DNA of 52,614 nucleotides, the filler included, from Asterionella formosa (taxonomy: Eukaryota), in the NCBI GenBank assembly GCA_002256025.1. It is 4 parts of 4 records of this genome, joined end to end, with 100 filler letters (N's around TTAATTAATTAA, not from the genome) between each part and the next. Parts side by side here need not be neighbours in the genome. Positions count along the whole stretch, not along the records: positions 39,552 to 52,614 come from NKIB01006986.1; 3 more parts are not named here. The stretch is one strand, 5' to 3'. The notes beneath the pieces were generated by a model. The model did not search any database and was not told where the DNA came from. It was given only the letters and a program-made list of their open reading frames with translations. The stretch's first letter is position 1. Every line of letters begins with the position of its first letter. A program made the translations under genes and the position numbers. Positions 52 through 47,560 of this stretch are shown here, piece by piece.

Positions 52-1344
52 TTGCGGATGAAGACTCTATTTCTACAGAGTCACAGTTCCATTCAGTGTC
101 GTATTTTGCTCCTCATTCTCCTGAAATCGCTGATAATGAAGAAGAACTCAGTGATTCTCATTCATTTGATGAACAAAATCATGCGAGGAATGAAAATATC
201 AGCGGAAATGTGGCAGACATCACTTCAGAAATAGAAATTGTTGAAATGTTGCAAAACCAAGAAATATGTCTCACTATCCGTCCAGAACATCAAGATGAAC
301 ATCATGAAAGCAGAGAAACTATTGCATTTCTAAAAGAACCGATATTCAAGAAAAAGTCTGAGCTAGATCAAGACCTCGAATTCAAGTAGATCAATGCAGA
401 CAGAGATGTGATACTGGATAAGGCAGTTGATGCTCTGAGTCAGGAACGAAGTCAGAAACACAAAATTGAATATTTTTCCAAATCATGCATGGAAGAAAAA
501 GAATTTCTTTGTAAAATCATTGAAAACAATCCAGAATGCAGCTAGCTACTTTTGTGAAGAGTCGGCATGTGAAATGTGTAGAGTTATTATGCCAAAGCAA
601 ATGGCATTTTCCTTGAGTTTGCCAAAGTCGCATGGACAACTAAAATTGTGGAAAGAATTGTACACTCGTATCCCGCAAGATATATGCAATTACGCCTCTA
701 TATTTTATGGAGTCAAAGGTATCAAAAAATCATCTTCAGATTTTAAAGATCTTGCATATTGGGACCTGAAACAATTACCTTGCTCTTTGATCCATTATAT
801 AATTCATGAACTTCATCCAAGTGATGTAAAGGGTATATTTGATCTGGATGAGAACCCAGAAAAGGGTAATAACAATCCATAAATATACCAAGGTGATTGT
901 CATCCACTTCATCACGAAAGTAACTATGTGCTAATTGTGTATTGTAAAAGATCAGATGAGGATGTAAACAATCAATTTGTGCATTATCTTTTTGCCATAA
1001 ATGATGGATTATGTCAAGTCCGTGACCCAGGAAAAGATGCAAGTGTGGATGAACATTATGGTCAAGTATTTCACCTTGCCCGTAAGTACTGCATCATCCC
1101 CCGATGCAGAAAAGAATTGGAATTGTTATGCACCGATACAGGATATCTTCCACAAGAATCCCATATACCTGAAGAAATTGGGTTCTCGGAATCCATCTAT
1201 ACTGGCACCAAAGCACCATTGCAGATCAGTATGGCCACTGAACATGATTCCATGTTATTTCAACCAGAAGATGACAGTAGATGGTCATATGGACCTTTTA
1301 CAATTGTGAAAGTTTTGGAAACTCTATTGCAATTAGAAAGGTAA
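52..1344 (+). pseudogene. Fragmented ORF series (96-389, 466-882, 928-1344) of unknown family, probably a decayed repeat-borne gene
   Basis: Three consecutive same-strand ORFs with protein-like composition, separated by stops or frameshifts. No recognisable domain. Confidence 0.35.
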
Positions 1345-3525
1345 GGAATGGCAAAACCAAATTTCTTGGCAAACATTGCACATTTCCGTATGGAGACTGA
1401 ATCCTGGAAAGTTTTAAAACGTCAGGTGGTTTAATAAGTACTAAGTATGCATTGGATTCTATTAGATCCATTAAAAATCATCATCGTCATCAATGTCCTG
1501 TTGATTAATGCGGTAATTGTAATCAGGTGAGAGTAGCAATTCCACTAGGAATCCTTCCATTTTCAGATCGATTCTTTTGTGAAAGTCCAGTGTAGATTTC
1601 CTTATAATAAACGAGTAAATCATCAGTACATTGATCAGTGAGACCATTTGAAACTGAACTTTCTTCCCTCACACTTTTTTATAAGTGGTTTCCCACCAAT
1701 GTCGACAAAATTGGTAGAATGACGAATATCGTTCTCTGAAATTTCATGGGTATCTGGATTGAAACCCAAATATTTTTGTTGCAATCGGAATTTTCCTTTC
1801 AGCACCAAAAGGCAAAATGCTTCTGTACTGGCATTGATCAGCGAACCAACAGAACGTGTTTGCAATTCACACTGTGCCCATAGACTGAGTTAAAATTTGG
1901 CTTAGTCACACCAGATTTGTCTCCTGTTAAAAATGGTTCTGCACGGCTTGTCCTGTCTATAAAATACACCGGAGCAAGAACATCACGCCAGACTTTTCTT
2001 GGTATCCATGGCTGGCTTCCCCTGTCAATATCCTTTGACTGCGCAAAACGATAAAGCGTCAACCACGCCCACCTAATAAAGTCATCAATATCCATAGCAT
2101 GGAAGTTAGCTAAATGCTTCTGTACTGGCATTGATCAGCGAACCAACAAAACGTGTTTGCAATTCACACTGTGCCCGAAGACTGAGTTGAAATTTGGTCA
2201 CACCAGATTTGTCTCCTGTTAAAAATGGTTCTCCACAGCTTGTCCTGCCTATAAAATACACGGGAGCAAGAACATCACGCCAGACTTTGTATCCATGGCT
2301 TCCCCTGTCAATGTCCTTTGACTGCGCAAAACGATAAAGCGTCAACGCCAACCTAATAAAGTCATCAATATTCATAGTCTGGAAGTTATATTCCGTTAGA
2401 CCAGCTGGTGTGTCATGAATTATGTTAGCATTTTTAAATTGAAACATATTTGATAAGAATATAATCACCGACTCAAAACATCATGATTTCGGAGCATCTC
2501 CCTGCAAGAACGTACCTAAGATTCCTTTAAATTGATTATTCAATACATTCTGACATTCTCCCGCTCAATTTTTTAATGCTCATGCCACCAAATGTTGATT
2601 TGATGTAATCTAAACATGCCTTGTTGGTACGTTCAATGGTCTGATTCATTGGAAGTATTGCATCAGAACCATTCCATATGAAATCGGCAAGCTCTGGGTC
2701 ACTCTCCACTTCTTTGCCTACCTAAATCCGGTTTCACTGTGTATAGCCAAGTTAGGCAACATTTGGCAAACCAATCCTGTTTGTGATTGGAAATGCCTTT
2801 CATACTACTTGGACCAGATAGGGCGGGATGTTTGATTCTCTTTGGGGACCAGAAAAAGCACATTATATTGATATTCTGTTTTACAGTACCTGCAATTCAC
2901 GAACTATAACATCTAACTTACATGTTCACAGCAAAACTTGGTCTTGAAAATAAGCATCTCAACCTTTGTGACAATTGATGGTTCAATTTTAGCTAAGCGA
3001 GAATGACGTTCTGATAAGGCTGCTGAAATTGAAGAGTATTGATAACCTCGTATGGACGAGTTTTGAACCGAATTACGACCTTTGTAGTGATTGAGTTCAT
3101 TGACCAATTGAGAATATCCTTTGGCAAGTGCAAAATGTTTTTCCCTCAGATTTTCATGCACTTGTTGGTCCGTGCGATTAGAAAATTTATGATATGGTAT
3201 CATGTCGTCCATTTGCATCCGGGAGTTATTAATGGCATCATCGATAGGAGCCAATTTTCTTGTATCAATAACTAGAAGTAGAAACGTCATCATCGCGGTC
3301 TGTATCAATTACGGGATCCTTTGTACTAGTAGCTGATGGTTTCCCCATCGACGATGGGTTATTACCCCCAACATCTTTCAATCGCCGATTGGGTTGCTTT
3401 GGATAATTGCCTATTCGCTTTTTCTTTGTTAAATCATTTTGGAACTGGCTTCTTTGTTCCATACCGGCAGTATTTGCCACATGTCGCTTGTTTCCATGAA
3501 CCTCTTTATGGTTTCCTGAAGACAT
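1342..3525 (-). pseudogene. Degenerate ORF remnants of an unclassified repeat family
   Basis: Minus-strand ORF pieces 1635-1865, 1838-2131, 2106-2468, 2913-3308 and 3265-3525. 1342-1425 is homologous to 32945-33028, and ~2855-3205 is homologous to ~35745-36180, so the sequence is multicopy. Confidence 0.5.
1816..2388. repeat. ~297-bp tandem duplication
   Basis: AATGCTTCTGTACTGGCATTGATCAGCGAACCAACA... starts at ~1816 and ~2113. The duplicated peptide LTLYRFAQSKDIDRGS..VWRDVLAPVYFI appears in two ORFs. Confidence 0.9.
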
Positions 3526-3744
3526 TGTACTACTTGATAACTGTTGTCGTTGTCTTCCTTAAAATTCGATGATCTTAAATTCAGGTGTTGCTAGTTACAA
3601 TGAAATGAATCATCAACCACTACAAATAATATTTTACGCTGTCTACATATGATGATACCATAAGACCAACAGTGCTGTTTACATTATCATATACAAAATC
3701 AGAACCGAGTTTGAGTAATAGCATATCTTGTTTTCAATTATATG

Positions 3745-4075
3745 ATTATACAATCCTGATACTATGATGCTTTAATGTCCCACGGTAGTAGCAACAGTTT
3801 TTTTTCTTATTACTCCGAATATCGTTTTTTAGTTTTATGATCATATCGTTTTTTAGTTTTATGATCATACAATCCTAAAACTCTGATGATTTACTGTCCC
3901 CCTGCAGTAGCAGCAGTCATGAACATATGGTGTTCTGTTGCTCGCTTATTACGCCGACTATTGTTTTTAGTTTTACGATCATATGATCCTAAAACTATGA
4001 TGATTTACTGTCCCACTGCAGTAGCAACAGTCTTGAACATATAGTGTTCTGTTGCTTGTTTACTACTCCGACTAC
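3745..4075. repeat. ~118-bp minisatellite, about 3 copies
   Basis: ATCCTRAWACTMTGATG..TTTA.TGTCCC..(C/G)(A/G)GTAGCARCAGT recurs at ~3750, ~3870 and ~3985. Confidence 0.8.
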
Positions 4076-4289
4076 CCCCAGTATATCACTTACTACCTGC
4101 TACTGGTACTCTGTGTATATATATAATAACATGTTATTGTCATATGATGTACCGGTACACATGAAGAACTCCCGCCCAAAAAAGGGGCTTAAACAATTTG
4201 CTACCAAAACCCTTGCGCTTATGACTTACACCAATTGAATGGTCTAAATAATTAGTTTCAACGGATGTAGAAAATATCGATAGAAACAA

Positions 4290-5140
4290 ATTTCAGAAAC
4301 AATACCGGTACACGTAGTCGTGGAAAACAATGAACATATAGTGCATTGAATATTTTCAAATTATGTATATGCGAGTTTGATCATCTCAACCATATCAGAT
4401 GTTCCTTATCGAGAGCGCCTTTGAATTTTATAAACGTATAAGACTTGATATATATATATATATATATTTACAAATTTTATTACTATATTCATGGCATATA
4501 TATTTTTGAAATCGTTCTGTCATGTTAACAAACAATGCCTGCTGCTTCACGAAAAGATACGTCATAGTAAAGCACATGACAAGAAAGTAAAGTTTACGCA
4601 ATACATAACGAAAAACATTGTGGCTTCGACACATTGCGCATTCGAAGGATGGAGAATGTTTAAGGTAATGAAGCCATCAATGTGGTACTTGGATGACAAT
4701 CGTTGGGAGGCAGGCAGCACAACAACAAATTGTTAACTAAACGCACATTTCCTTTTTTCTCAGTTGATTCAACAGCTCGTTTCATGTTTAAGATAGATAT
4801 ACGATGAAACAATTCAAATGATAGCATAGAGTTGAGCTGATTTTAGGATGCGTTGTAGTTATAATTTACATCGGGCGATCACGAGAAGTGAAAATTATAT
4901 GAGAAGGTTTATGATATTAATGAGAAATGTTGTTGATCAGTTTATATACATTGTGTGATGATAATTTTCTTGTTATCATTATACTTCAAGGTTGGTAAAA
5001 TATTAATAAATCATCATAGTTACAAGATACCTTGATCATATTTTTGATCCAAAAATTATCATATATACGAAAATCCTGTGCCACTTAGCGTACGATACCC
5101 GTGATTGTATATGCATGATACTTTTTATTTGCAGATGCAA
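4290..5140. repeat. Dispersed non-coding repeat associated with the Tc1/pogo-like remnants
   Basis: 4744-4781 matches 31242-31281. ~4790-5135 matches ~31925-32285. The 3' end (AAAATCCTGTGCCA...TTTTTATTTGCAGA) also occurs at ~23895-23965. 4316-4365 resembles 22637-22690. Confidence 0.75.
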
Positions 5141-5182
5141 CTTTCCGGTGAGAAGAGAGGGGGATGAGTAAAAACGAAAATA

Positions 5183-5949
5183 GTGCTGCAATTGAGACCA
5201 CGCAACTTCCTCCAGCACCAGGCGCTAATGGTCGTCCCAATCACAGCACCATGGCATTTTCAAGAAACAACCAGCAACGTATTCAATGAGCAACCAACAA
5301 AGTACAACACACTTCTTCATGATGAAATACAGCTGACAGCAGTTTCAGCAACCTTGACAGAATCGAATGCCGCTATCTCGACCATCACACCAGCAGGACT
5401 GAATCTAAAGGAAGGTATCACCAGCACCCTTCTTGACAAAGTTATTGAATTCAGAAACAAAGAGGATTCAAGGAATGGCATCAAGCTTGATCAGATGGCT
5501 CACCAACGGAAGTAGTTGGCGCTATGGGCAATCACGCAAAATAGAAGGTATACAGCATGAGTACTTGTGGCGGCTGGACGCTTTAACATGGGAACGGAAG
5601 CAGGAGGATATGACTAGGATGAAAAGAAGAGCAGAGGAGAAGGAGAGTGAGAAAGCAAATAAGAAAGTTATGTATTACACCGCAGCATTGAACAAGGTAC
5701 AAGCAATCAGAGCGCTTAATGAACAGGAACACGAATGGATGGTGGCGCAAACAAAAACAATGGTGTCTTGTCACAAACGAATTGGCAATGCGCCATTACC
5801 GACAACAAAACATCTACTGCTTACTTACCAGATATATTGATACGATGGGACGTGGCGATGCACCAGACCAAGTTGCCGGAGCTATATTGCAACCAGCAGC
5901 CTCAGCTGAAGAGGATGACGAGGATGAAGTCGTGGTGACAGAAGATTGA
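5183..5949 (+). mobile_element. Degenerate C-terminal part of a Tc1/pogo-like transposase-associated ORF
   Basis: EWMVAQTKTMVSCHKRIGNAPLPTTK..LL.RY.DT resembles QMSVAELKLFVRWDKQSGDLPVPQTRQALITRFDDT (30159-30464, minus) and the copy at ~15190-15660. Frameshifts are present. Confidence 0.5.
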
Positions 5950-6318
5950 TTTTTGTGTTCTGCACATTTTATCGACGTCAGTTGACGCAAGAAATCGGAG
6001 AAAATATGGAAAACGAGGTAATATTTTCTAATCGTTTACCATTAAAAAATATTTATACATGACGAAAAATATATGAATGGCTTAAGACCTCTAAAATGCA
6101 AAATGAACGACTTAAAAAGTTCGATATTATAAGATATACTTCCAATCGTTAAAATGATTCATTTATCTAGTACTTGCATGTACCAGTCGACCTCTATTTA
6201 AAGGGTTTTAATTGAAGTCCGGTGAACATATTCTAATTTTAGTCCAAAAACGGGGTATAGTGGTCTTGAGCAGTTTTTGACTGGTACCATGTTTGAGTCT
6301 TCCGAGTCATTCCCCTCA

Positions 6319-8225: not shown

Positions 8226-8392
8226 TCCTTACTTCCTTCGTGCATATCGGAATCCTAGCTAGTTGAGTCATCCAGCAATTTCCGCTCCAACTATTGTCTT
8301 GCCATCGTCTGTAAATTAAAAACCGTTAGGTCAAACAGTTTTGCTGTAAGACACACTGCCCCAGAAATTATCAGTATGCTGTACCATTTTTT

Positions 8393-8485
8393 GATTGATC
8401 ATACAAAAAAACAGATTGATCATTCAGAATTACGGATTGATCATACAGAAATACTGATTGATCATACCAAAAACTGATTGATATC
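8393..8485. repeat. 21-bp-phased GATTGATCAT array (5 copies)
   Basis: Copies start at 8393, 8414, 8435, 8456 and 8476; the last is degenerate (GATTGATATC). Confidence 0.85.
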
Positions 8486-16422: not shown

Positions 16423-17430
16423 TCACGATAGGCCAAAGTATCTCAGAAGTACCAAGTCCATCTCCTCATCATCTGGTGCCTCTGAACAATCTTCCAGCTG
16501 TAAATGTTCTCCTCTAACTAACATTTTGGTTGATGGCAAGTTGTCTGATAAAACCACATCACCATGCATATCATCTAGCCATGCTCCCAACTGCAAGTGG
16601 CCAGATCTAAGCGCCATTCTGGGAGATAGTGAGTCTTCTGATAACCTCCCATGGTCATGATGATGATTTTCATCATCATCATCATCATCATTGAGGATAT
16701 CAAGAGCACACTGGAGAAAGGTAGTATATTCCAATCGATGGTCATTTTCTTCCTTTGTTGTATCATGCTGCTGGCAGGGGTGGATGTATTCCCGCTCTTC
16801 CAGCATTTCCATGGTATGGTGGTTCTCATAACCATAGAAAGACGACTGGCTGTCAGTGGATGCAACACCCCGAGGTGAGGATTGGTCGATATTGGGTACA
16901 TCATCACGATCTGATGCTCCGTTCTTAGAAAAGCAGAAATGACGAGCAAGAAATACTTTCCCATGTGAAGAACTTGGAGTTCGACCTCGATCGTGTTGGG
17001 GTGTGCTACCGTGGTCGGCTAAATGCTCTGGTGACTTGTTCTTAACTTGACCACTAGTCTTGTGTGATGCTAACAACGACTGCGCAGTGGAGCGATTCCT
17101 GTCACGCCGAGGAAGTGAAGTGTTGATGGAGCGGTTCTTAGCCGCATCTCTCAAGGCGTGAGAAACCTTTTGGTGAGCGATGGGTTCATTGGAGACATCA
17201 ACCCATTGCTGGTTAGAATCTCGGAGGAGGAACCGACAATTTTGAGCGCGGATGCGATCAATCAAAGACTTAATCGCTGTAATCCGGTCCTTTCTGGCAA
17301 TACCAGCTTCGAGGTACTCATGTAAATTCTCAAGGATAAAAGCGCGAAAAGCTTTGTTGCCAGGATGATTGAAACAACTCTTTGAGCGACCAAGGAGAAT
17401 GTCGGTATTAGTTGGTTCATTCAAAGTCAT
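16423..17430 (-). CDS. DUF6824-domain protein (diatom-expanded putative DNA-binding regulator), 335 aa
   Basis: N-terminal PTNTDILLGRSKSCFNHPGNKAFR...I...IR...RFL....W..VS.....QKVSHALRD is the family signature. The ORF is intact and has a low-complexity C-terminus. Confidence 0.88.
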   Translation of the reverse strand: MTLNEPTNTDILLGRSKSCFNHPGNKAFRAFILENLHEYLEAGIARKDRITAIKSLIDRIRAQNCRFLLRDSNQQWVDVSNEPIAHQKVSHALRDAAKNRSINTSLPRRDRNRSTAQSLLASHKTSGQVKNKSPEHLADHGSTPQHDRGRTPSSSHGKVFLARHFCFSKNGASDRDDVPNIDQSSPRGVASTDSQSSFYGYENHHTMEMLEEREYIHPCQQHDTTKEENDHRLEYTTFLQCALDILNDDDDDDENHHHDHGRLSEDSLSPRMALRSGHLQLGAWLDDMHGDVVLSDNLPSTKMLVRGEHLQLEDCSEAPDDEEMDLVLLRYFGLS

Positions 17431-17475
17431 GATGAAGGCACAATGAGTAGCAGAGTGATATTGAAATGGTGAAAG

Positions 17476-17588
17476 AATAAGGTGTTAAGCTCACGAATTT
17501 GTTATCACATTTGCGATTGCTGTCGCATCTATTCAATAAGGTGTAAAGCTCACGAATTTGTGATCACATTAGCTATTTCTGTCGCATA
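17476..17588. repeat. ~59-bp tandem duplication immediately upstream of the DUF6824 gene
   Basis: AATAAGGTGTWAAGCTCACGAATTTGTKATCACATT...CTGTCGCAT occurs at 17476 and 17535. Confidence 0.85.
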
Positions 17589-36180: not shown

Positions 36181-38877
36181 TTGTTGGTATTGTTGAAACG
36201 ATTGAAATTCATGAAGAAAAGTCAAATACAGATGATGATTTTGAAATAATTGACTGGACTACAAACAACAAGACGTTTTTTGACTATGAATATGTTGAAG
36301 ACACCGAGGTACCGAGGTCTACAGTACATGGAACGAAAACGAATATGCATTTGTTGGAGTGACAATTGAAATCGCGGATGATGAGATCAATAAAGTACAC
36401 AATGCAAGCATCAAAACCAGTGAGAGTAAAATTTGCGCATCAAGTGATGAAAATGAACGTTGGTTAGCTGATACAGGCGCAACCAGTCATATTACGTTAG
36501 CAGATACAAGCGCTACCAGTCATATTGTTACTATTTTCAATAAGTATATGACAAATGTGAAAGAAGTAAATGTACGCGTTGTTTTTGGCGATGGTAATGA
36601 AGTCATTTGCAAGGAACGCGGAAATATCTGCGTGCGAAACAAAGTGACCAATGAGACACTCTTGCTTAAGAATGTGGTCCTATATACACCTACCTTTCAT
36701 AAAATTTTATCAGCATTGGTACTATTGTAAGTAATGGTAAATACGAACTTGGTATGAAGCACAAAAAATGACTTTGACAAAAGCGGGAAAATCTGAGACT
36801 CTAGATTTTAAACGTGATCATTCGGATGTTTTGTACTTTTTCCAAGGAACTCGTGGAATTTAACCAGGGGGGGGGGAGTTATATTGTATCTGCAGAGGTC
36901 ATCACAACGAAATTGACCAGTATGGACATTAATAAAGCTCACGCTAAATATGGACATATTTGGGGAAGCAGTGTTGCAGGCTACTATGAAATCGCTTGGT
37001 ATCAAAATGACAGGTATGATGTATACATGTGAAGGATGTGCCCTAGCTAAGGCTAAAGCAAAAAGTGTTCCTAAAGTGACTGGGAGCAAGGCTACTCAAC
37101 GGGGCAAACGTTAATGCACAGATATTAGCGTTCCATAATAAAATTCGATATTTAGAAATGACTATTGGATCCTTGTTGATGACAAAATTATTGGAGTTTC
37201 TTTTTCAAGAAGAAGTCTCAACTTGCTTCAAAGATTGAAGATTTGACTAAACTCAAAACGGCTGAGTATGTTACCAAGTTTCTCCGTTGTGACAAACCGG
37301 GTAAAAACATCTCAGGTTTGACAAAATTATGTGAAAAATTCAATATTCAAATTTAGTTTACGGCACCCTACACGCTACAACAGAATGGAATTGTTGCGCG
37401 AAAGTTTGGAACCATTCCTCAACAAGCATGTGCAGCAATGTTTGCTGCAAAAGTTAATGATGATTTTCAAGGTTTACTTTGGGCAGAGGCCATTAACACC
37501 AACACACGAATCACTAACATTGTTGCCACATCTGATAGTGCAAAAAGTGCAGATGAGAAGTTTTACTAAAGGGTTCCAATGATTTACGATCACCGAATGC
37601 ATTTTGGCAGGATCGGATGGGTGAAATGTGCTAAGAAAACAAATAAACTCGAAGAAAAGGCCATTAAATGTGTGATGGTTGGTAATGCTAATAATCTTGC
37701 TGGAGACACTAACCGAATGCTTAACTCTCAGACACGAAAGATTATAAATAGTCGAGACATTCGCTGGGCTGATTGGCATGGTCAAACAAATCCAATTACA
37801 GGTTTGCGGGATTTCAATGTGGAAGGGGAAACAGAAATTGTTGATATTCCAATTGATGATGAAAAGCAAGACGAAGATGTTGTTCCTGTTGTATCACCTA
37901 TCCAGCAGGATATTTATTTGGAAACACTTGTTCAAGATTTCAGCTATCCGAAGCAGTGGGGAAGTTAGATGATGAGATCAACAAAAATTGCTGGAAAGCC
38001 AAATGATATTAAATGGTTCAAAAATGAAATCAAGAAACACTTCATAATTAAGGAGCTTGGCCCTTTGAAGAAGCATTTGGGAGTATAAAGTGGGACGCTA
38101 ATTGGAGTCGAGCATGGAGGATTTCGTTCATGTTATGCTCCAAGATTATCATGATATTTTTGGAAAGTATCCAACAGATGCATCAACCCCAGCATTGCCA
38201 GGAAATGTTCTCAGAAAGAATCCAGACAAAGTGACTCTCCATAAAGAAAATCGTTTAATGGTTGGAAAAATGTTCTATTTTGTGAAAGTTTGACCAGTAT
38301 GCGCAGCAAATACATGTCGTGAACTTTCTCAACATCTAGAGAATCCAGGAGATGCCCATTGGAGTGCTGTTGAACGTTTTTTAGGTTTCATTGCAACTGA
38401 TGAAAAGAACAGAAAATTAAAAAAGAGACCACCACATGAATTACGAGTTCAAGACGTGGTAGACAGCTCATTTGGGGACAATCCAGAAACCAGGAAATCG
38501 AGACGTGAATATTTAGGTATGATTGGTGGTGCATCGCTAGTGAATTGGATTTCGAAAGGACAGAAGATTTTTACTGTTTACAGCACTGAAGCAGAGTATT
38601 TGGCTCTATCAGATGGATCAAAGGAAACTACTTTTTTAATGAATCTACTCAATAAAGTCGAATATGTGGAAATGCTCAGTATCATTGCAGAAATAATACA
38701 GGTGCCATCTTTCTATTAAAGAATCAACAGGTTGGGTCAATAACTAGGCAGATTGATGAGAGGTATCATTACTCGATTACTTTGAAGAATCCTGCAGACC
38801 TACTTTCAAAGAATGACACTCATGCAACCCACTTTATGAATTGTACTATGGATTGTTGGTTTCGAGATCAGGGAGGG

Positions 38878-41386: not shown

Positions 41387-42535
41387 GGTTATAATTGTAG
41401 ATTCAGTGATGGTTCGGGGATCGTAAACGTATTAAACGAGGCAATAAGTATGCCTTCTCGTCGTCTTTGAGTGCGGGTGTCTTGTAATGAATGCGATTAA
41501 TGTCGCTCCGTACGATTGTTTCAAATATGAATGAGTTAATTTGGGAGTCGATTCGTTCTCGAATTTTTGCCCCTTGCCAGTTGTTTGGCTACCGTATACA
41601 TGGCTGCTGTTGTCCTTACTTGTCCCTGAACACACACACATCACTGCATACTACCAGGTACCAGGTACCAGGTACCGGTACCAGGTAGCTATGATTTGTA
41701 TTTCTGCTCATGTGTACCCAGGTACTACTGGTACTTGGTAATAGGTTGATATCTCAAGCATGCATCATAGCACCACAAATATTCTTGTACTCCAGTACCA
41801 CCTGGTGGTACCAGGTACTACATACCAGGCAAGGTGGTCCACCGTTCCTGTGGTACCTGGTACCAGTATCAAGTAGGGTACCAGTACAGCCTGGTTGCTG
41901 GTACCTGGTACTACCGGTATGTGGAAGTTATGTAATGGATGCTGGTGTGGCAAATGACTGACGTTTGCATACATGGGTTTTTCGTTGAAAGTAGGTACCT
42001 GGTACCAGGTACCTGGTACTTCATACGATGGCACCAGGCGGTACGTACGGCGTACTTTTTCACCGCAAGCAAACTACCGGGTAACGACAACAACACGAGC
42101 CAAGCAAGGGAGAAATTCCTTTTAAGCAATAACGCACAGGTATATACCGGTAAAAAGTTTCAGGAGAGGGGGTATCTGGTACTGTACATACCTTCTTGTC
42201 TACCTTTGCTTTCGCCGTTCGTTTTGACGTGGCGCCAATTCAACAAGGTGCAGCAAATCACGGTTTGAAGTAAAAAGAAAGTATACCTACGTTCTAATTT
42301 TTATTTTGCATGGTGCCGTAGGACGTACATACCGGTACATTTTATAAATACACTAAATTAATCATCTAGACATAGGAATATAACATGATTACCGGCACTC
42401 TATATATTACACAGCATATATGTTCTCTACTATGGTTTAATGCAAAATAGTAAGAAGAAATAAATTAGAAGCGCAAGCCGCGAAACTATATACCATGGTA
42501 GGAAAGAAAGTTTTTGCCGGACTCTCCTGTATCTT

Positions 42536-42747
42536 GATTGCTGAAGGTAAGACATAACCGAGGGTGGAGACTGCCTGGTGAGAGTATTCTTGTGTTCGAG
42601 GCTTGGGAGGCGGTGAGTAGGTTAACCAAACGAGTAGCGCCGTGGACGCCACTTGTTCAGTCAATCTGCGATGGCCTCCCAAGCCAAGTACACAAGATTA
42701 TGAGTAGGCAGACTCCTCCCGAGTAGGGTCTTACCTAGTAGGCAATT
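42536..42747 (+). ncRNA. Candidate rod-like structured RNA, copy 1
   Basis: Eight nested helices: GATTGCT/GGCAATT, AGGTAAGAC/GTCTTACCT, GGGTGGAG/CTCCTCCC, CTGCCT/AGGCAG, TCTTGTGT/ACACAAGA, GGCTTGGGAGGC/GCCTCCCAAGCC, GTAGGTTAAC/GTCAATCTGC and ACGAGTAGCG/CGCCACTTGT. The helices covary with copy 2. Confidence 0.6.
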
Positions 42748-42942
42748 CACAAACTAGCTAATGCTGCTCTTTTTGCTTGTTACAATCATTCTTGTGTGAC
42801 TATTTTTCATGCATATACTGGTAGTACCGGTATACTGGGTATGCGGCCGTCCATGCATTTTTGATGTGTCTAAACTTTTTCCCATGAAAATTCTACTCCT
42901 GACGTTACTGCTCGATGGTCTCTGCTGCTCAAACCTAAAATT

Positions 42943-43148
42943 GACTGCTGAAGGCAGTACACGCCCGAGGTGGTCTCATGCCTGCGAGTATACATGTGTT
43001 CGAGGCTTGGTGGCGCAAGAAGGTTGACCATACGAGTGGCGCCCCCGGCGCTGCGAGAAGGTCACCCTATGAGTGCCATCCCAGCCAAGTACACATGTGT
43101 ACGACGAGAAGGCATGTAGCCACCGAGAAGGGTATTGCTGAGGCAATT
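42943..43148 (+). ncRNA. Candidate rod-like structured RNA, copy 2
   Basis: Corresponding helices: GACTGCT/GGCAATT, GGCAGTAC/GTATTGCT, GGTGGT/GCCACC, CATGCCT/AGGCATG, GTATACATGTGT/ACACATGTGTAC, GGCTTGGTGGCGC/GTGCCATCCCAGCC, AGGTTGACC/GGTCACCCT and GTGGCGCC/GGCGCTGC. It shares the 3' tail CACAAACTAGCTA. Confidence 0.6.
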
Positions 43149-44959
43149 CACAAACTAGCTATTGTCGCGCCATTCGCTTACCTACTGCCCACTCATCGAA
43201 TGTAAATGTCAATTTTAGCTCACTATAGCCCATCATATAAAATATATTTCGTATATTTCCTATCTTCACATCGAAATTTGCAATGGGTCCGATATTGCGC
43301 ATCATTAAAATATATTTTGTATATTTCCTATCTTTGAATTTTGGCATTACAATTTGTAGCAATTGCCCCTCGGTTGTCCAGCCCTGGGATTGCCGAAATT
43401 GGCAAGGGGTCTACTTAAGGAAACCATTTAATTTACTCTACAGATTTTTATAATTTATATCTAGAATTCACCTCGTTTTTGTTCGTCTCCTGAAAAGTGG
43501 ACTCCGGCAATTCACCTTTCACCATGCCGATCGTCGTCCATCATTACCGGTTTGAAGCGAAATCAGTTCAGAGATGACGCCAGTAGCTATTCCTTGTCTA
43601 ACGGATGCGGTTGGTTGTTGGATTGCTTGTCTTCTCGAGGGATTCATGTAGTCGCATCGTCCATATTTCGTCGGACGAACAATGAAATCGATACATCTGA
43701 TGTTGGTGGCAAGTTTTTGCTCCGGTCATGCATGTGATGATGCTTAACGGATATTCTACCGGTAGTCAGCATCTAGTCTACATACGTACGTGGTACTGAC
43801 AACAACCATGCATGGTTTAAGCTAAACTTTAATGCTTACTTTGAGCACGTTATAATTTTATCGCGGTAGACTCGGTATTATCTTTACGAGACCAGAATGT
43901 TAAATTGTATCGTTCACATATTGATTCTTGATTTTATGTACCGAATGCCCGATTTCGTCCTCACAATTATAATTCTCACTCTCTCCTGCCTGCCGTTGCT
44001 CAATTTGGGCTTGCAACAGGAACTTTCGACTTTCTTACGAGCCCATCATCTGCTGTGTGTTACGCTTGTTAGAGCGGATCGGTGAGTACAACAGTGAACA
44101 CTGAATGTGATCGTAGATACAAAATTGTCGAAGTTCCGGCCCGATTTGATTGCTTCCATGGTCCGTTTTGATCCCTTCCATCGTGGTTTGTCGTTCCACC
44201 CTGTCGTTTTGTTTCGATTTTATCTATCTACATAAGAGCCAATGTGTTTATCGATAACTACTCTTTGACGACATACTGTTGTTGATCGTATTTGTTGATG
44301 TGTATAGTTGTTTACCATGATGTCAATATTGCCGTCAAGCAATGCTTTTCTTGTACTAAGGCACTTTGCTACATTTATACTACGAGTTTGTATCACAAGC
44401 TACATAAAAAATCAGCTAGAGAGAGCCAATAGTGCTGGTGCAGCGTGGCGATCACGCTTGCTCGGAATGGAATGATCAGGGTTGCTTGTTTGGTGGCCGG
44501 AGGAATGATGACTGTGGCGAAAATACTGCTTCTGGTGTCAGGCTACTACAGCGATGCGCATGGTTGCAGCAACCAGACCATTTACGCTACATAACGATGC
44601 AGGTCTTTCTTCTTTCGGTCTTCGATTGTGTGGTGATGGAAAGTCAAGCAATGGTCTGTTGCCTGTGTAAGTACTACAATGATTCACAATGCATGCGTCT
44701 CCATTGAAACTCCTATTTTTTACTTCATTTCTAACCCAAAACAATTTTTTCTATTTCTTATTTGATGCAACTTATTACATCGCATGATTTCATAGTTTGG
44801 TTGCTCCAAACATCATGTTCAAATTTCGTTGATGTTGCATCTTGTTACAATCATTCTCGTGTGTTTTACGCTTGTTGTACCATCTCCATGCATATTACCG
44901 TTATTCTGGTTGTCATGCTTAAAAATCGGCAATTTTACTGCCGAAAAATTCGATGTGCC

Positions 44960-45126
44960 CTATATTGCCCCAAAATAAAAATTACTTAAAGCCTAAAAAT
45001 TACTTAGAAGTTGTACCCGAATGGCAAGACGATAGCTGGAGCGGGAATTGCCGAAAGAAACTCCACTGTACCTCATATTGCCCCTAAATACAAAAATTAC
45101 TTAAAAAAACCAAAAATTACTTAGAC
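44960..45126. repeat. Duplicated AT-rich module upstream of eIF3b
   Basis: ATATTGCCCC.AAATA..AAAATTACTTAAA...AAAAATTACTTAGA occurs at ~44962 and ~45075. Confidence 0.75.
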
Positions 45127-45424
45127 ACCCACAGTTCTCATCGAAAAGCAAGACTATAGCTAGAGGGTGGGGATTGCTGCGCCATAATCAACCCATTCAG
45201 TACGTAGCCAACTCCTGCGACCATCAAACATTCGCCACCACACATAATCCAGACAAGGGCTACGTGAAGGTTCATACCCGGTTCTCCTACCTTCCAGTAG
45301 TACACAGTCACTCTGTCCATCAGATCGGCTCCATTGCAAAGGAAAGCTAAGGCTTCGTTCGCTCGACTTTCGATTGATTCATAGCGTCGACTGAACTGTT
45401 GAACTCGAACGCGTAGAATATAAC

Positions 45425-47560
45425 ATGGCCCCAATTATAGACCTGGAAGCCGAAGCCGCTGAGCTGGACGGCTACTTTTCGGACACTCCGTTGGAGCCCA
45501 AGCCCAACTATCCGAAGCTTCACGATACATTCGAGAATGCTGTCGTTATTACCAACCTCCCAAAAGTTTCAGACCTCAAAAAAGAGAAGCTGGAGAAGGT
45601 CATCATGAAGCTTCTGTCAAGAATTGGCAATCTGGCTGCAAATCCGGACACTGGCTTTAGTGGAATGCAAATGCCGGTTAGCAAGGAAACGGGAGGTACC
45701 ATGGGCTTTTGTTTTGTCGAGTACGAGACACCGGAAGAGGCCAAGAATGCAGTTGATGTCTTGCAAAATTACAAGTTTGACAAGAATCATTCTTTGGCAG
45801 TTATGCCCTTTGCCAGAGCGCAATATTTGGACTCTGTCCAGGCGAAGGAGTTCCAGCAGCCAGAGCCTGCTCCCTTCGTTGAGAAACCGAACTCGACAGA
45901 ATGGCTCGCTGATTCCAACCAGAGGGATGAATTTGTCACTAGGTTTGGTAAAGAGACGGTGGTGCACTGGTCAGATGGAAAGAATCCTCCTGTCGTGGAC
46001 TACGATGGATCGCGCGAGAAGGAAGCAGGTGTTGCCTGGTGTGAGTACTACTGCCATTGGAGTCCCAATGGAAGCTACTTGGCGACCTTGGTTCCAAGCA
46101 AGGGTGTCATTTTGTGGAGTGGTGCAAAGTATGACAAGACTGGCAGGTTCCCCGCCCCTGGAGTCGAGTTTATCATCTTTAGTCCTCAAGAGAATTACCT
46201 CTTGACCAGCAATAACCGTCGTGACGACCCCAATGCAATCAAGGTTTTTTCCATTCAAACTGGCAAGCTGTTGCGTGCGTTCCCCCTATATCCCCAGGAC
46301 TTTCAGCACGACAATGGGAACATTGCCCCTCCACCGTTTCAATGGTCACATGACGATGCCTATCTCGCGCGTATGGGCGACGGGCTCATTTCAGTATTTG
46401 AAACGCCTTCTATGAAGTTGCTTGACCGAAAATCACTCTTGACAGACGGTATTCACGAATTCCAATGGTCTCCCAAGGCGAATGTCTTGGCGTATTGGGC
46501 TCCAGAAGTAAAGAATTCTCCTGCACACGTGGATCTCATTGAGATTCCATCCCGTGCGAAAATCCGTCAGAAGAATCTTTTCAATGTTAGCAAGTGTAGT
46601 ATGGTCTGGCAAAATGAGGGAGAATACCTTGGAGTGAAAGTGACTCGTCACACCAAGTCCAAAAAGACAATGTATAACAATATTGAACTCTTCCGGCTCA
46701 ATGAGCCTGGGGTTCCCGTCGAGATGTTGGAAATAAAGGATGCAGTGATGGCCCTAGCTTGGGAACCTCGTGGGTCTCGATTTGCCATTATTCATGCCGA
46801 AAATCCATCTTCTACAAAGGTTGATGTTTCTTTTTACGACATGAAGAAAAAGGTTGAGGGCAGTACCAAGAAGGGGCAAAAGGGTGCTGCACCGAAAGAA
46901 ATCATTTCGGAGTTCAACAAAGTCCAAACTTTGGAAGGCAAGCAGTGCAATTGCATCTTTTGGAGTCCTGCTGGTTCTACCATCATTCTGGCATCGTTGG
47001 GAGAATCATCTTCGGGTACTTTGGAGTTTTATGATGTCGATACAGAGTGCCTTGTCATCAAGGAACATTACCGCTCTAATCAAGTCGTTTGGGATCCATC
47101 TGGTCGTACAGTAGCAACCTTAGTATCCCAGCCAATTGGTGGAGGACACTTTAAGTTTGCCATGGACAACGGTTACATTCTCTGGTCATTCCAAGGAAAG
47201 CAGCTCTACCAGCAGTCCTTCGAGGCGTTTTACCAGCTCAGTTGGCGTCCACGCGAAAACCTCCTTGCAAAATCAGAAATAGACAAAGTGAGAAAGAACC
47301 TCAAGAAGTACGAGCAGCAATTCGATATGCAGGATAAGGAACGTCAACGAGCTCTCAAGTTGGAAGAGACGAAAGGCAAGCGCGCTCAACGGCAGCGATA
47401 CCGAGACATGATGGGCCGTCTCCGAGCCATCCGTCACCGTCAAAAGGAAGATCGCAAGGCGCTTTACAATGGATACGACTCTGACGATGAGAGCAATTAC
47501 ATTACCACGGCTATTACTGTGGAGACTGTTGTGAGCACCAAGGAGGAGATTATTTCATAA
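45425..47560 (+). CDS. EIF3B: Eukaryotic translation initiation factor 3 subunit B (eIF3b/PRT1), 711 aa, intronless
   Basis: N-terminal RRM (VVITNLPKV, GFCFVEY, YKFDKNH), WD40-like propeller (WSPNGSYLAT, FSPQENYL, WEPRGSRFA, WDPSGR, DNGYILWSFQG) and C-terminal WRPR...KNLKKY helix. Confidence 0.98.
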   Translation: MAPIIDLEAEAAELDGYFSDTPLEPKPNYPKLHDTFENAVVITNLPKVSDLKKEKLEKVIMKLLSRIGNLAANPDTGFSGMQMPVSKETGGTMGFCFVEYETPEEAKNAVDVLQNYKFDKNHSLAVMPFARAQYLDSVQAKEFQQPEPAPFVEKPNSTEWLADSNQRDEFVTRFGKETVVHWSDGKNPPVVDYDGSREKEAGVAWCEYYCHWSPNGSYLATLVPSKGVILWSGAKYDKTGRFPAPGVEFIIFSPQENYLLTSNNRRDDPNAIKVFSIQTGKLLRAFPLYPQDFQHDNGNIAPPPFQWSHDDAYLARMGDGLISVFETPSMKLLDRKSLLTDGIHEFQWSPKANVLAYWAPEVKNSPAHVDLIEIPSRAKIRQKNLFNVSKCSMVWQNEGEYLGVKVTRHTKSKKTMYNNIELFRLNEPGVPVEMLEIKDAVMALAWEPRGSRFAIIHAENPSSTKVDVSFYDMKKKVEGSTKKGQKGAAPKEIISEFNKVQTLEGKQCNCIFWSPAGSTIILASLGESSSGTLEFYDVDTECLVIKEHYRSNQVVWDPSGRTVATLVSQPIGGGHFKFAMDNGYILWSFQGKQLYQQSFEAFYQLSWRPRENLLAKSEIDKVRKNLKKYEQQFDMQDKERQRALKLEETKGKRAQRQRYRDMMGRLRAIRHRQKEDRKALYNGYDSDDESNYITTAITVETVVSTKEEIIS

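Follow-up and report, generated by a model that had tools for sequence, protein, structure and literature searches.

The transposons of diatoms have so far been little described. The systems closest to the repeat reported here, from the freshwater pennate diatom Asterionella formosa, fall into several classes. MITEs and foldback elements such as Drosophila FB are high-copy, dispersed and non-coding, measure a few hundred base pairs, fold end to end, decay as individual copies and commonly give rise to rearranged or deleted variants. The rolling-circle Helitrons end in 5'-TC and CTRR-3', carry a short hairpin that lies 10-12 nt inside the 3' end, and insert between A and T. Viroid and HDV rods, retrozymes and the retroviral constitutive transport element are unbranched rods of 200-300 nt with repeated identical purine-rich loops, G·U pairs and covarying stems. 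Among local motifs, in the K-turn a canonical stem is separated from a non-canonical one by a 3-nt bulge and then tandem sheared G·A pairs, the sarcin-ricin or loop E motif sets AGUA opposite GAA and is conserved among its members, and tandem G·A pairs in a Py-GA-Pu context are stable in DNA too. HUH enzymes recognize DNA hairpins, according to one report, in which Replitrons are detected in no diatom (PMC10288648). In a second study, by Christiansen and Znosko (2009, PMC2724281), the tandem mismatch 5'CGAG3'/3'GAGC5' ranks third by frequency in an RNA secondary-structure database and belongs to the few that contribute a favourable free energy, −0.69 or −1.74 kcal/mol.

The window analysed here, a stretch of 52,614 nt, contains two hairpins on the + strand, which an initial annotation had read as a tandem pair and a candidate undescribed structured non-coding RNA. 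They lie where it had placed them, 407 bp apart: copy 1, of a divergent minor subfamily, at 42536..42760, and copy 2, a mutated member of the major subfamily, at 42943..43161. Each comprises a core rod and a 20-nt 3' tail (42741-42760 and 43142-43161) and is devoid of the left outer stem found in a fuller copy. Start-to-start spacing is 407 on the 5' side and 401 on the 3' side, and the intervening + strand spacer (42761..42942) is repeated DNA too. The copies are 69% identical over 234 nt by BLAST, while a MAFFT alignment that includes their flanks gives a mean column identity of 81%. Their common tail, which the annotation had described as conserved, occurs exactly twice in the window against an expectation of 0.01, and neither nhmmer nor BLAST found a third hairpin anywhere in the 52.6 kb. 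CGAG occurs four times on the + strand of copy 1 and seven times on that of copy 2, CTCG in neither. Only copy 1 is followed by a T5 run, and no promoter or terminator common to both copies was found.

Each copy folds into a single unbranched hairpin. Copy 1 forms 77 pairs with a minimum free energy of −109 to −111 kcal/mol; against shuffled controls (−70.1 ± 4.7), the value of −111 corresponds to a z of −8.67. Copy 2 forms 76 pairs at −105.4 kcal/mol (z −7.56), and in neither case did any of 200 shuffles do as well. The opposite strand, which in an inverted repeat unavoidably folds as well, does so less stably, at −104.4 (copy 1) and −87.5 (copy 2). To these two sequences we added L013, a metagenome copy 89% identical to copy 2; alignable material amounted to three copies in full and half of a fourth. 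In the three-copy alignment, 93.7% of the cells of 74 predicted pairs are paired, and at nine of the 74 pairs both partners have changed; slid-partner controls gave 0-3 such pairs, and none of 500 shuffles did as well. Within the family, a change of A to T at 42978 is accompanied by T to A at its pairing partner, 43115. Among single mismatches, G·U outnumbers A·C in all three copies (L013 11 v 0, copy 2 9 v 0, copy 1 8 v 2); by alignment column, G·U appears in 18 and A·C in 6 (binomial p about 0.011). The unbranched folding, the differences that preserve pairing and the excess of G-T over A-C on the + strand, all read from the sequence by the initial annotation, are thus borne out. L013 itself folds at −160.2 kcal/mol (z −11.6), its other strand at −135.7; DNA parameters give −76.1 and −67.5, respectively. 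The strand with purine loops is the more stable one, by 24-30 kcal/mol under RNA parameters and by 8.6 under DNA parameters. Compensatory changes, the preference for G·U over A·C and purine loops on the + strand only support the conclusion that the hairpin is kept by selection with a + strand-specific signal.

The design of the hairpin is clearest in L013, which has an additional outer stem of 25 bp. Its unbranched rod of ~260 nt contains five CGAG/CGAG loops and one UGAAG/UGAG loop, all with tandem G·A, spaced 15-19 nt apart and separated by helices of 7-15 bp (7-8 bp at the apex); the tip is GC-rich and closes with a CCC loop. The outer stem arises where the tail after the rod pairs with the end of a neighbouring module, described below as region B. 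On one strand L013 has 10 CGAG and 0 CTCG, while 5,000 shuffles gave a mean of 1.36 CGAG and a maximum of 7. The CGAG/CGAG loops are exactly the C-G-closed tandem mismatch catalogued in PMC2724281; rRNAs and other RNAs carry it there as one local motif, whereas the rod repeats it five times at regular intervals. These are symmetric 2x2 loops without a 3-nt bulge, so the K-turn likeness suggested by the initial annotation fails. Its sarcin-ricin comparison fares no better, since the AGUA/GAA-like loop (UGAA / UAGUAG) is private to copy 1; the equivalent site reads UGAAG / UGAG in copy 2 and L013, and the UGAAG 5' side recurs in a second metagenome locus, L070. From the six G·A loops on one strand, the G·U preference and the covarying stems, we infer that in propagating copies the rod is selected as a single-stranded molecule of the + (purine-loop) strand. 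The loops cannot tell RNA from single-stranded DNA, given that tandem G·A is stable in DNA also.

Assembled contigs mapped onto 42200-43500, a 1.3-kb stretch, showed that the hairpins are a module of a high-copy dispersed repeat family. Twenty runs from 15 studies carry part of this stretch, with 971 contig pieces in the DNA metagenome run X2 and 602 in run X7. The 971 pieces span a wide range of likeness: 109 at ≥99%, 232 at 95-99%, 356 at 90-95% and 274 below 90%. Summed depth in X2 is 1,206-6,302 over copy 2 and the adjoining region A (1,600-4,400 over region A up to 43500), 73-641 over copy 1 and 98-388 over the spacer, compared with 6.78 over the unique flank at 42200-42507. Summed depth on the 1.3 kb is 100-900 times that of the unique flank, a ratio that may include other organisms and is not a copy count. 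Loose contig ends before 42946 (24 in X2, 17 in X7) and before 42541 agree with one another at only 0.38-0.58, so the flanks of the copies differ, and L070 carries the 5' arm of the hairpin behind an unrelated flank. Some contigs represent deletion variants, with joints at which 104-113 nt of the rod are missing. When metagenomes were scanned with a gapped 19-base pattern, itself a loose one, two of the 120 loci returned (L013 and L070) were related by BLAST; pattern scans of viral contigs gave 0 related loci among 15 in one scan and 0 matches in another, and both scans of prokaryote genome contigs gave 0 matches. Dispersal on this scale does not support a reading of the locus as a pair of cellular RNA genes.

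The copies in the window are decaying. Copy 2 departs from the contig majority at 11 positions, and at five of these (43017, 43030, 43070, 43087 and 43122) the majority has CpG where the window has TpG or CpA; in three of the five, the majority letters restore CGAG. At position 42701 of copy 1 the majority changes T to C in four of four runs, again restoring CGAG. CpG methylation is the presumed route of this decay. As conserved loop letters have been lost through CpG transitions at several sites, the window copies are themselves not under selection. The initial annotation had proposed selection on a single-stranded + strand structure; selection and strand specificity stand, for the family and not for these two copies.

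The hairpin module (H) is embedded in longer repeated DNA. Region A (43162..43699, +) continues from copy 2, and L013 positions 1-755 match window positions 43699-42946 at 89%. Within region A, 68 bp are duplicated in tandem (43224-43334) and the motif GGATTGCCGAAA occurs at 43387; structure at 43440-43720 is not significant (z −0.53). Region B (44618..45057, +) matches L013 749-1185 over 45055-44618 at 87%, and ends with an A-rich part, the left outer stem (45028-45051) and then TGCCGAAAG (45049-45057), which agrees at seven of nine positions with the hairpin start, TGCTGAAGG. A diverged second B end follows at 45049..45179 (+), where 45049-45177 matches 44939-45051 at 73% by BLAST; it closes with GGGGATTGCTG, which resembles the left outer stem, and the unique DNA upstream of eIF3b then starts. 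Far from this block, a fragment on the − strand at 8255..8305 retains the left outer stem, TG and the distal portion of the tail (CTAGCTA) with the hairpin core absent; 33 nt of it are 88-90% identical to the B end. Within the spacer, a 23-nt block (42776-42798) is shared with 44841-44863 at 22 of 23 positions (local score 41, where the best shuffle reached 25), and the last ~50 nt form a module present in another copy. When the whole spacer was considered as a B homologue, only the 23-nt block proved significant. A larger palindrome, in which region A would pair with the B end as its inverted copy, was likewise tried; only the 35-nt outer stem matched (BLAST, E 1e-4), the rest being at chance level.

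In L013 the homologue of 44618-45055, a 437-bp module, is joined directly to the hairpin start at 42946, while in the window the same module sits 1.5 kb downstream, the order being H (copy 2), region A, ~0.9 kb of further DNA, region B and the stub of a new hairpin start. With one junction (L013) and the stub at 45049 as its basis, this order suggests units of ~2.1 kb that may be able to sit head to tail; the junction of H start and B end probably marks where units begin and end. A protein-database search with a spurious ORF that crosses the hairpin returned five products, which were used for module order only. Residues 120-143 of P0121 match the minus-sense translation of 42757-42975, and P0122-P0124 join the B end to the hairpin in the opposite orientation. 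The latter arrangement is not predicted by a simple head-to-tail unit and fits either an H flanked on each side by a B-like module or an inversion internal to the palindrome. No coding signal was detected, and Pfam was blank for six ORFs of the hairpin region. The 24 window ORFs of at least 130 aa gave Copia-type pol pieces, DUF6824, SAP and a sub-threshold SR-25 in Pfam, and no Rep, helicase or transposase. ORFs upstream of the hairpin arm in L070, which bore some likeness to a DDE transposase, were dismissed when Pfam returned nothing for all four, apart from one chance-level RecO_N_2 match (E 0.25).

Comparison with described classes leaves the family unclassified. Rfam 15 gave 0 matches at gathering score in the whole window, in keeping with the initial remark that no known RNA family fits; at E ≤ 10, matches were at chance level only, namely mir-3136 (E 8.4) and OrzO-P (6.4) in 42300-43400 and SNORA35, SNORA8 and CRISPR-DR21 (E 0.9-3.5) in 43100-45400. 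No ribozyme family matched at E ≤ 10 in 42300-45400, as a retrozyme or viroid-like element would require. The rods of viroids, HDV, retrozymes and the constitutive transport element resemble the hairpin in length, loops, G·U pairs and covarying stems, whereas the hairpin belongs to a repeat abundant in the genome, with long non-coding flanks, no ribozyme match and an RNA form that is putative. A SINE is contradicted by the failure to find a tRNA, 7SL or 5S model at E ≤ 10, or poly(A) or a target-site duplication (TSD) at the copies. As LTRs of an LTR or TRIM element the two copies were rejected, since their likeness is a mere 70-80% or so and inspection of the sequence showed neither a PBS nor a PPT; an introner was rejected on account of splice-site-like ends in copy 1 only. 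HUH and rolling-circle transposons (Helitrons, Replitrons, bacterial IS200/IS605 with REP/REPIN) share with the family a strand-specific hairpin adjoining an element end and a head-to-tail junction, and like it they show no duplication of the target. In contrast to theirs, the rod is about ten times longer, and the window lacks a Rep or helicase gene. Helitron TC and CTRR ends are absent at the recurrent boundary, where the junction reads ...GGGAAT followed by TGCTGAAGG...; a CTAG is found 11 nt past the rod, and the repeat runs on for more than 500 nt beyond it. Literature searches on diatom foldback, MITE and Helentron elements and on tandem G·A hairpins in transposons yielded nothing relevant, and to judge from such searches the family is not in print.

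A rival explanation is a palindromic double-stranded DNA transposon of the MITE or foldback type. Under this explanation, the arms stay complementary through a transposase that binds both ends or through mutual conversion, with no selection on a single strand. It is consistent with the high copy number and differing flanks (971 and 602 pieces, and the L070 flank), the small non-coding palindromic unit, the A/T-rich surroundings, the decay of individual copies, the ability of both strands to fold and the fact that, with respect to the B end, the hairpin is found in either orientation. The initial annotation had reserved the MITE reading for many dispersed copies with TSDs and no transcription or significant covariation; the dispersed copies are there, but the covariation is significant and no TSD flanks copy 1, copy 2 or L070, few copies being complete. 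GATTGCTG does stand at either end of the block as a whole (42536 and 45172), yet other copies carry it within the element itself. Nor was a transposase partner or any inverted repeat at insertion ends found, and the rod, unlike a MITE, lies within longer conserved modules. A double-stranded palindrome further predicts equivalent arms and no strand bias, whereas the family has identical strand-specific CGAG/CGAG loops, all six mismatch loops of the rod being GA/GA on one strand (10 CGAG v 0 CTCG), 11 G·U against 0 A·C in its best-preserved copy, L013, and a purine-loop strand more stable by either parameter set. We therefore regard this explanation as improbable.

A multicopy family of cellular structured RNA genes, of which the window would hold two copies or pseudogenes, has still less in its favour and strikes us as quite unlikely. 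Covariation, G·U pairs, a conserved RNA-type loop motif, a conserved tail and the want of any matching known family agree with it, as does the presence of element sequence in contigs of a polyA RNA library, at depths of up to 532-666. These contigs mostly continue into unrelated sequence: in the unstranded polyA run X17, 23 of 26 contig pieces lie only partly on the stretch, and 97% run on into unlike sequence. Run X16 gave five pieces at depths of 1-4, and in X7, which is labelled RNA, the unique flank (5.4) and the repeat are covered in the same proportion as in the DNA run. The existence of diverged copies in their hundreds, with unlike flanks and with mosaics and deletion variants among them, the loss of conserved loop letters in the window copies, the lack of a common promoter or terminator and the inclusion of the rod in the longer conserved non-coding modules A and B also count against such genes. 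Long unbranched repeat-derived hairpins are known small-RNA sources in other eukaryotes, but hairpins serving as small-RNA precursors (hairpin-RNA or siRNA loci, derived from the repeat and silencing the family), though compatible with a repeat origin and with element sequence in RNA libraries, are very improbable here, as the helices are broken every 15-19 nt by conserved mismatches and conservation falls in the loops rather than in a duplex of about 21 nt.

The explanation that we favour, with reasonable confidence, is that the two hairpins are decaying copies of module H of an abundant, non-coding, unclassified diatom repeat, most likely a non-autonomous mobile element. Mobility of the family is read from copy number and differing flanks only, as no terminal duplications, autonomous partner or defined 3' end were found. 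The rod would be a platform of repeated sites recognized by the replication, integration or packaging machinery of the element, with protein presumably bound at the loops. The selected single-stranded form may be the RNA of the element, to which we give something near an even chance. Single-stranded DNA of a rolling-circle-type process is possible, if not favoured, and a form that is neither of the two seems doubtful. More speculatively, the rod may be the recognition module of an undescribed diatom mobile element or replicon, a non-coding unit of ~2.1 kb whose single-stranded intermediate would be RNA or rolling-circle DNA, with a multi-site scaffold; such an element is an unlikely proposal. 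Its unit ends would pair and so complete the 260-nt rod, the six evenly spaced tandem G·A platforms would form a scaffold for protein binding at multiple sites, and units would begin and end at one site inside the rod.

These results remove a false lead, in that the locus is not a new cellular non-coding RNA. The hairpin of a repeat here displays signatures usually taken as proof of functional RNA (covariation, G·U bias and conserved loops), which calls for caution in screens for non-coding RNA in repeat-rich algal genomes. Among eukaryotic hairpin repeats, the regular one-strand array of identical CGAG/CGAG tandem G·A loops is unusual. If a single-stranded intermediate and a binding protein were found, they could reveal how abundant unclassified diatom repeats spread.

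Both hairpins described in the initial annotation were recovered as single unbranched folds, copy 1 (42536-42760) at −111 kcal/mol (z −8.67; 200 dinucleotide shuffles, −70.1 ± 4.7), and copy 2 (42943-43161) at −105.4 kcal/mol (z −7.56, 200 dinucleotide shuffles). Neither native energy was matched by any of its 200 shuffles. The copies are 69% identical across 234 nt by BLAST and end in the same 20-nt tail, GGCAATTCACAAACTAGCTA, which is absent elsewhere in the window. The complementary strand also folds, as that of an inverted repeat must, at −104.4 (copy 1) and −87.5 (copy 2) kcal/mol, more weakly than the + strand. A third hairpin copy was found in the 52.6-kb window by neither BLAST nor nhmmer. 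Rfam gave zero matches at gathering score across the whole window, and at E ≤ 10 only chance-level matches within 42300-45400. The description of two related hairpins outside known RNA families therefore holds. Copy 1 carries a 5' splice-site-like AAG/GTAAGA at the base of its 5' arm (42544-42552) and CTTACCTAGTAG, followed by a boundary, at its 3' arm (42729-42743); these ends are probably coincidental, being absent from copy 2 and from the two related metagenome loci described next.

A metagenome scan with a loose pattern related two of 120 loci, L013 and L070, to the hairpin. Over window 42946-43699, L013 (1,185 nt) shows 89% identity, and directly upstream of its hairpin it shows 87% identity to 44618-45055. 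Its rod is longer, the 24 nt preceding the hairpin (GACGATAGCTGTAGCGGGAATTGC) pairing with the tail and the letters that follow it (GCAATTCCCGCTCTAGCTATCGTC); the middle of this tail differs from that in the window, and its partner has changed to match. The folding energy of these 291 nt is −160.2 kcal/mol (z −11.6), and that of the opposite strand −135.7. Its internal loops are five CGAG/CGAG and one UGAAG/UGAG, making six tandem G·A mismatches closed by Watson-Crick or wobble pairs and spaced 15-19 nt apart on each arm, and the tip is a 7-8-bp GC helix with a CCC loop. On the strand equivalent to the window + strand, CGAG occurs ten times in L013 (mean 1.36, maximum 7 in 5,000 shuffles), seven times in copy 2 and four times in copy 1, while CTCG occurs in none of the three. 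PMC2724281 ranks 5'CGAG3'/3'GAGC5' as the third commonest tandem mismatch in an RNA secondary-structure database and gives it a favourable free energy of −0.69 or −1.74 kcal/mol.

Covariation was assessed on a small sample of three sequences (copy 1, copy 2 and L013), bearing in mind that related sequences can outscore shuffles without any structure. Across 74 predicted pairs, 93.7% of cells pair; nine pairs are altered on both sides, against zero to three in controls with slid partners, and none of 500 shuffles reached the observed value. In the wider family, A>T predominates at 42978 and is mirrored by T>A at 43115, the position it pairs with. G·U pairs outnumber single A·C mismatches in L013 (11 versus 0), copy 2 (9 versus 0) and copy 1 (8 versus 2), and by 18 to 6 over alignment columns (binomial p about 0.011), with five of the six A·C columns coming from copy 1, the sequence aligned with the least certainty. 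A palindrome acting only as double-stranded DNA should be free of such polarity; from the G·U/A·C bias and the one-sided GA loops we infer selection on the + strand in single-stranded form. DNA parameters favour the same purine-loop strand (−76.1 versus −67.5), so RNA and single-stranded DNA are not distinguished by these data. The proposal that the structure is under selection is thus borne out by the covarying pairs, the wobble bias and the GA loops confined to the + strand. Inspection of the loops did not bear out the suggested K-turn and loop-E resemblances.

Parts of 42400-43300 are contained in 20 sequencing runs, which belong to 15 studies and are largely freshwater metagenomes, and assembled contigs from four runs were aligned to 42200-43500 (1,301 bases). 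The DNA metagenome run X2 contributed 971 contig pieces over these bases, falling into 109, 232, 356 and 274 pieces in likeness classes descending from >99% to <90%. Depth in this run was 6.78 on the unique left flank (42200-42507); summed depth was 73-641 on copy 1, 98-388 on the spacer and 1,206-6,302 from copy 2 rightward through 43500. Run X7 was alike (602 pieces, flank depth 5.4, maximum 9,035). We estimate 10^2-10^3 copies per genome equivalent, to an order of magnitude only, since summed contig depths may take in other organisms. Loose contig ends before 42946 (24 in X2, 17 in X7) and before 42541 are A/T-rich and agree mutually at just 0.38-0.58, and hence the hairpin copies occupy differing surroundings. 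Although X7 is RNA-labelled, the ratio of its coverage on flank and repeat is DNA-like. From the polyA library X17 came 26 contig pieces, some deep (one at 532), of which 23 align to the stretch only in part, with 97% continuing into unlike sequence; these contigs, which carry no strand information, show family fragments within other transcripts, or DNA.

In copy 2, the majority of contigs disagree with the window letter at 11 positions, five of which (43017, 43030, 43070, 43087 and 43122) are CpG in the majority and CpA or TpG in the window. Three of these five majority letters convert CAAG or TGAG back to CGAG, as does the majority letter at 42701 in copy 1 (four of four runs). Methylated repeats are expected to decay by CpG transitions, and transposon methylation occurs in diatoms. 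The loops noted as conserved are thus better kept in the family than in either window copy; the window copies are decaying and not themselves under selection. The reading as a new cellular ncRNA gene is not supported, the sequence being a module of a high-copy repeat.

The spacer between the copies (182 nt) has a 23-nt block in common with 44841-44863, and its last ~50 nt turn up again alongside the family in a further contig (P0121, a product retrieved with a spurious ORF across the hairpin). Directly after copy 2 comes region A (at least 43162-43699), which contains an AT-rich 68-bp tandem duplication (43224-43334; 43 nt at 91%, 29 nt at 97%) including TAAAATATATTT(C/T)GTATATTTCCTATCTT. A BLAST comparison gave no demonstration that region A is an inverted region B. 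After an intervening ~0.9 kb, region B (44618-45057) ends in a left outer stem (45028-45051), followed by TGCCGAAAG, a 7/9 match to the hairpin start. A diverged second B end (45049-45179) terminates at GGGGATTGCTG, with unique DNA to its right and then the eIF3b gene (45395-47557), which shows 70% identity to its counterparts in the pennates Nitzschia and Seminavis and 88% to metagenome proteins. The host is accordingly a pennate diatom, and the sequencing runs point to fresh water. A remote minus-strand fragment (8305-8255) retains left stem, TG and distal tail, the core being absent; just upstream, 8400-8470 (minus) holds four or five ~17-20-nt tandem units, each with GTATGATCAATC.

Neither window hairpin has the left stem, nor does L070; all three start at TGCTGAAGG after unrelated sequence, and three B ends halt at this point and carry no hairpin. 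Because B ends and hairpin starts break at this junction, and L013 joins both halves there, we infer that units start and finish at it. One junction and breakpoints from few copies suggest a unit of about 2.1 kb (42946-45048), able to lie head to tail. P0122-P0124, spurious ORF products from other assemblies, place a B end in window-plus sense before a hairpin in minus sense, which counts against a simple tandem model, the search query having been biased toward this arrangement.

Other features were noted in the window. Dense GGTACCWGGTACC-type short repeats, direct and inverted, with arms up to 30 nt and 80-100% complementary, occupy 41647-42030 just upstream of the block. The motif GGATTGCCGAAA / GAATTGCCGAAA, resembling the hairpin start, has its sole exact window matches at 43387-43398 and 45045-45056, with one-mismatch matches at 42535 and 43502 (minus) and a similar GGATTGCTG by eye at 45172-45180. 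Contig depth has a peak at bin 43388-43431, and the motif could be a repeated binding site. Window 27810-27914 matches L070 1-105 (105 nt, 90% identity), adjoining its truncated hairpin; the match reflects either a further repeat from this diatom lineage or chimerism of the contig. A 353-aa ORF with a DUF6824 domain (E 1.9e-19) lies at 16426-17484 (minus).

Pfam matched none of six ORFs in 42500-45400. Transposon proteins in the window are limited to fragments of Copia-type pol (36.3-38.0 kb), from an LTR retrotransposon pol gene broken into separate + strand ORFs (Pol_BBD, 36299-36727, E 1.3e-8; SH3_retrovirus, 37570-37965, E 3.4e-8) and separated from the hairpin block by a SAP-domain gene. 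Palindromic non-autonomous transposons resemble the diatom repeat in decay as well as in copy number, but the repeat lacks their strand symmetry. Rod-shaped cis-acting RNAs carry repeated internal loops, as does this hairpin, but it is without a ribozyme and is a candidate RNA only. Two of its features are shared with HUH and rolling-circle elements, namely the strand-specific hairpin located at an end and the head-to-tail junction. Helitron termini are absent from it, and the window yielded no Rep gene. Replitrons were not detected in diatoms (PMC10288648). Our literature searches found no published diatom element of this kind.

The pair in the window are worn copies of a hairpin module that belongs to an unclassified and abundant diatom repeat, and the hairpin structure is real and selected. 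Its interest is moderate and lies in the regular tandem-G·A rod and a candidate single-stranded intermediate.
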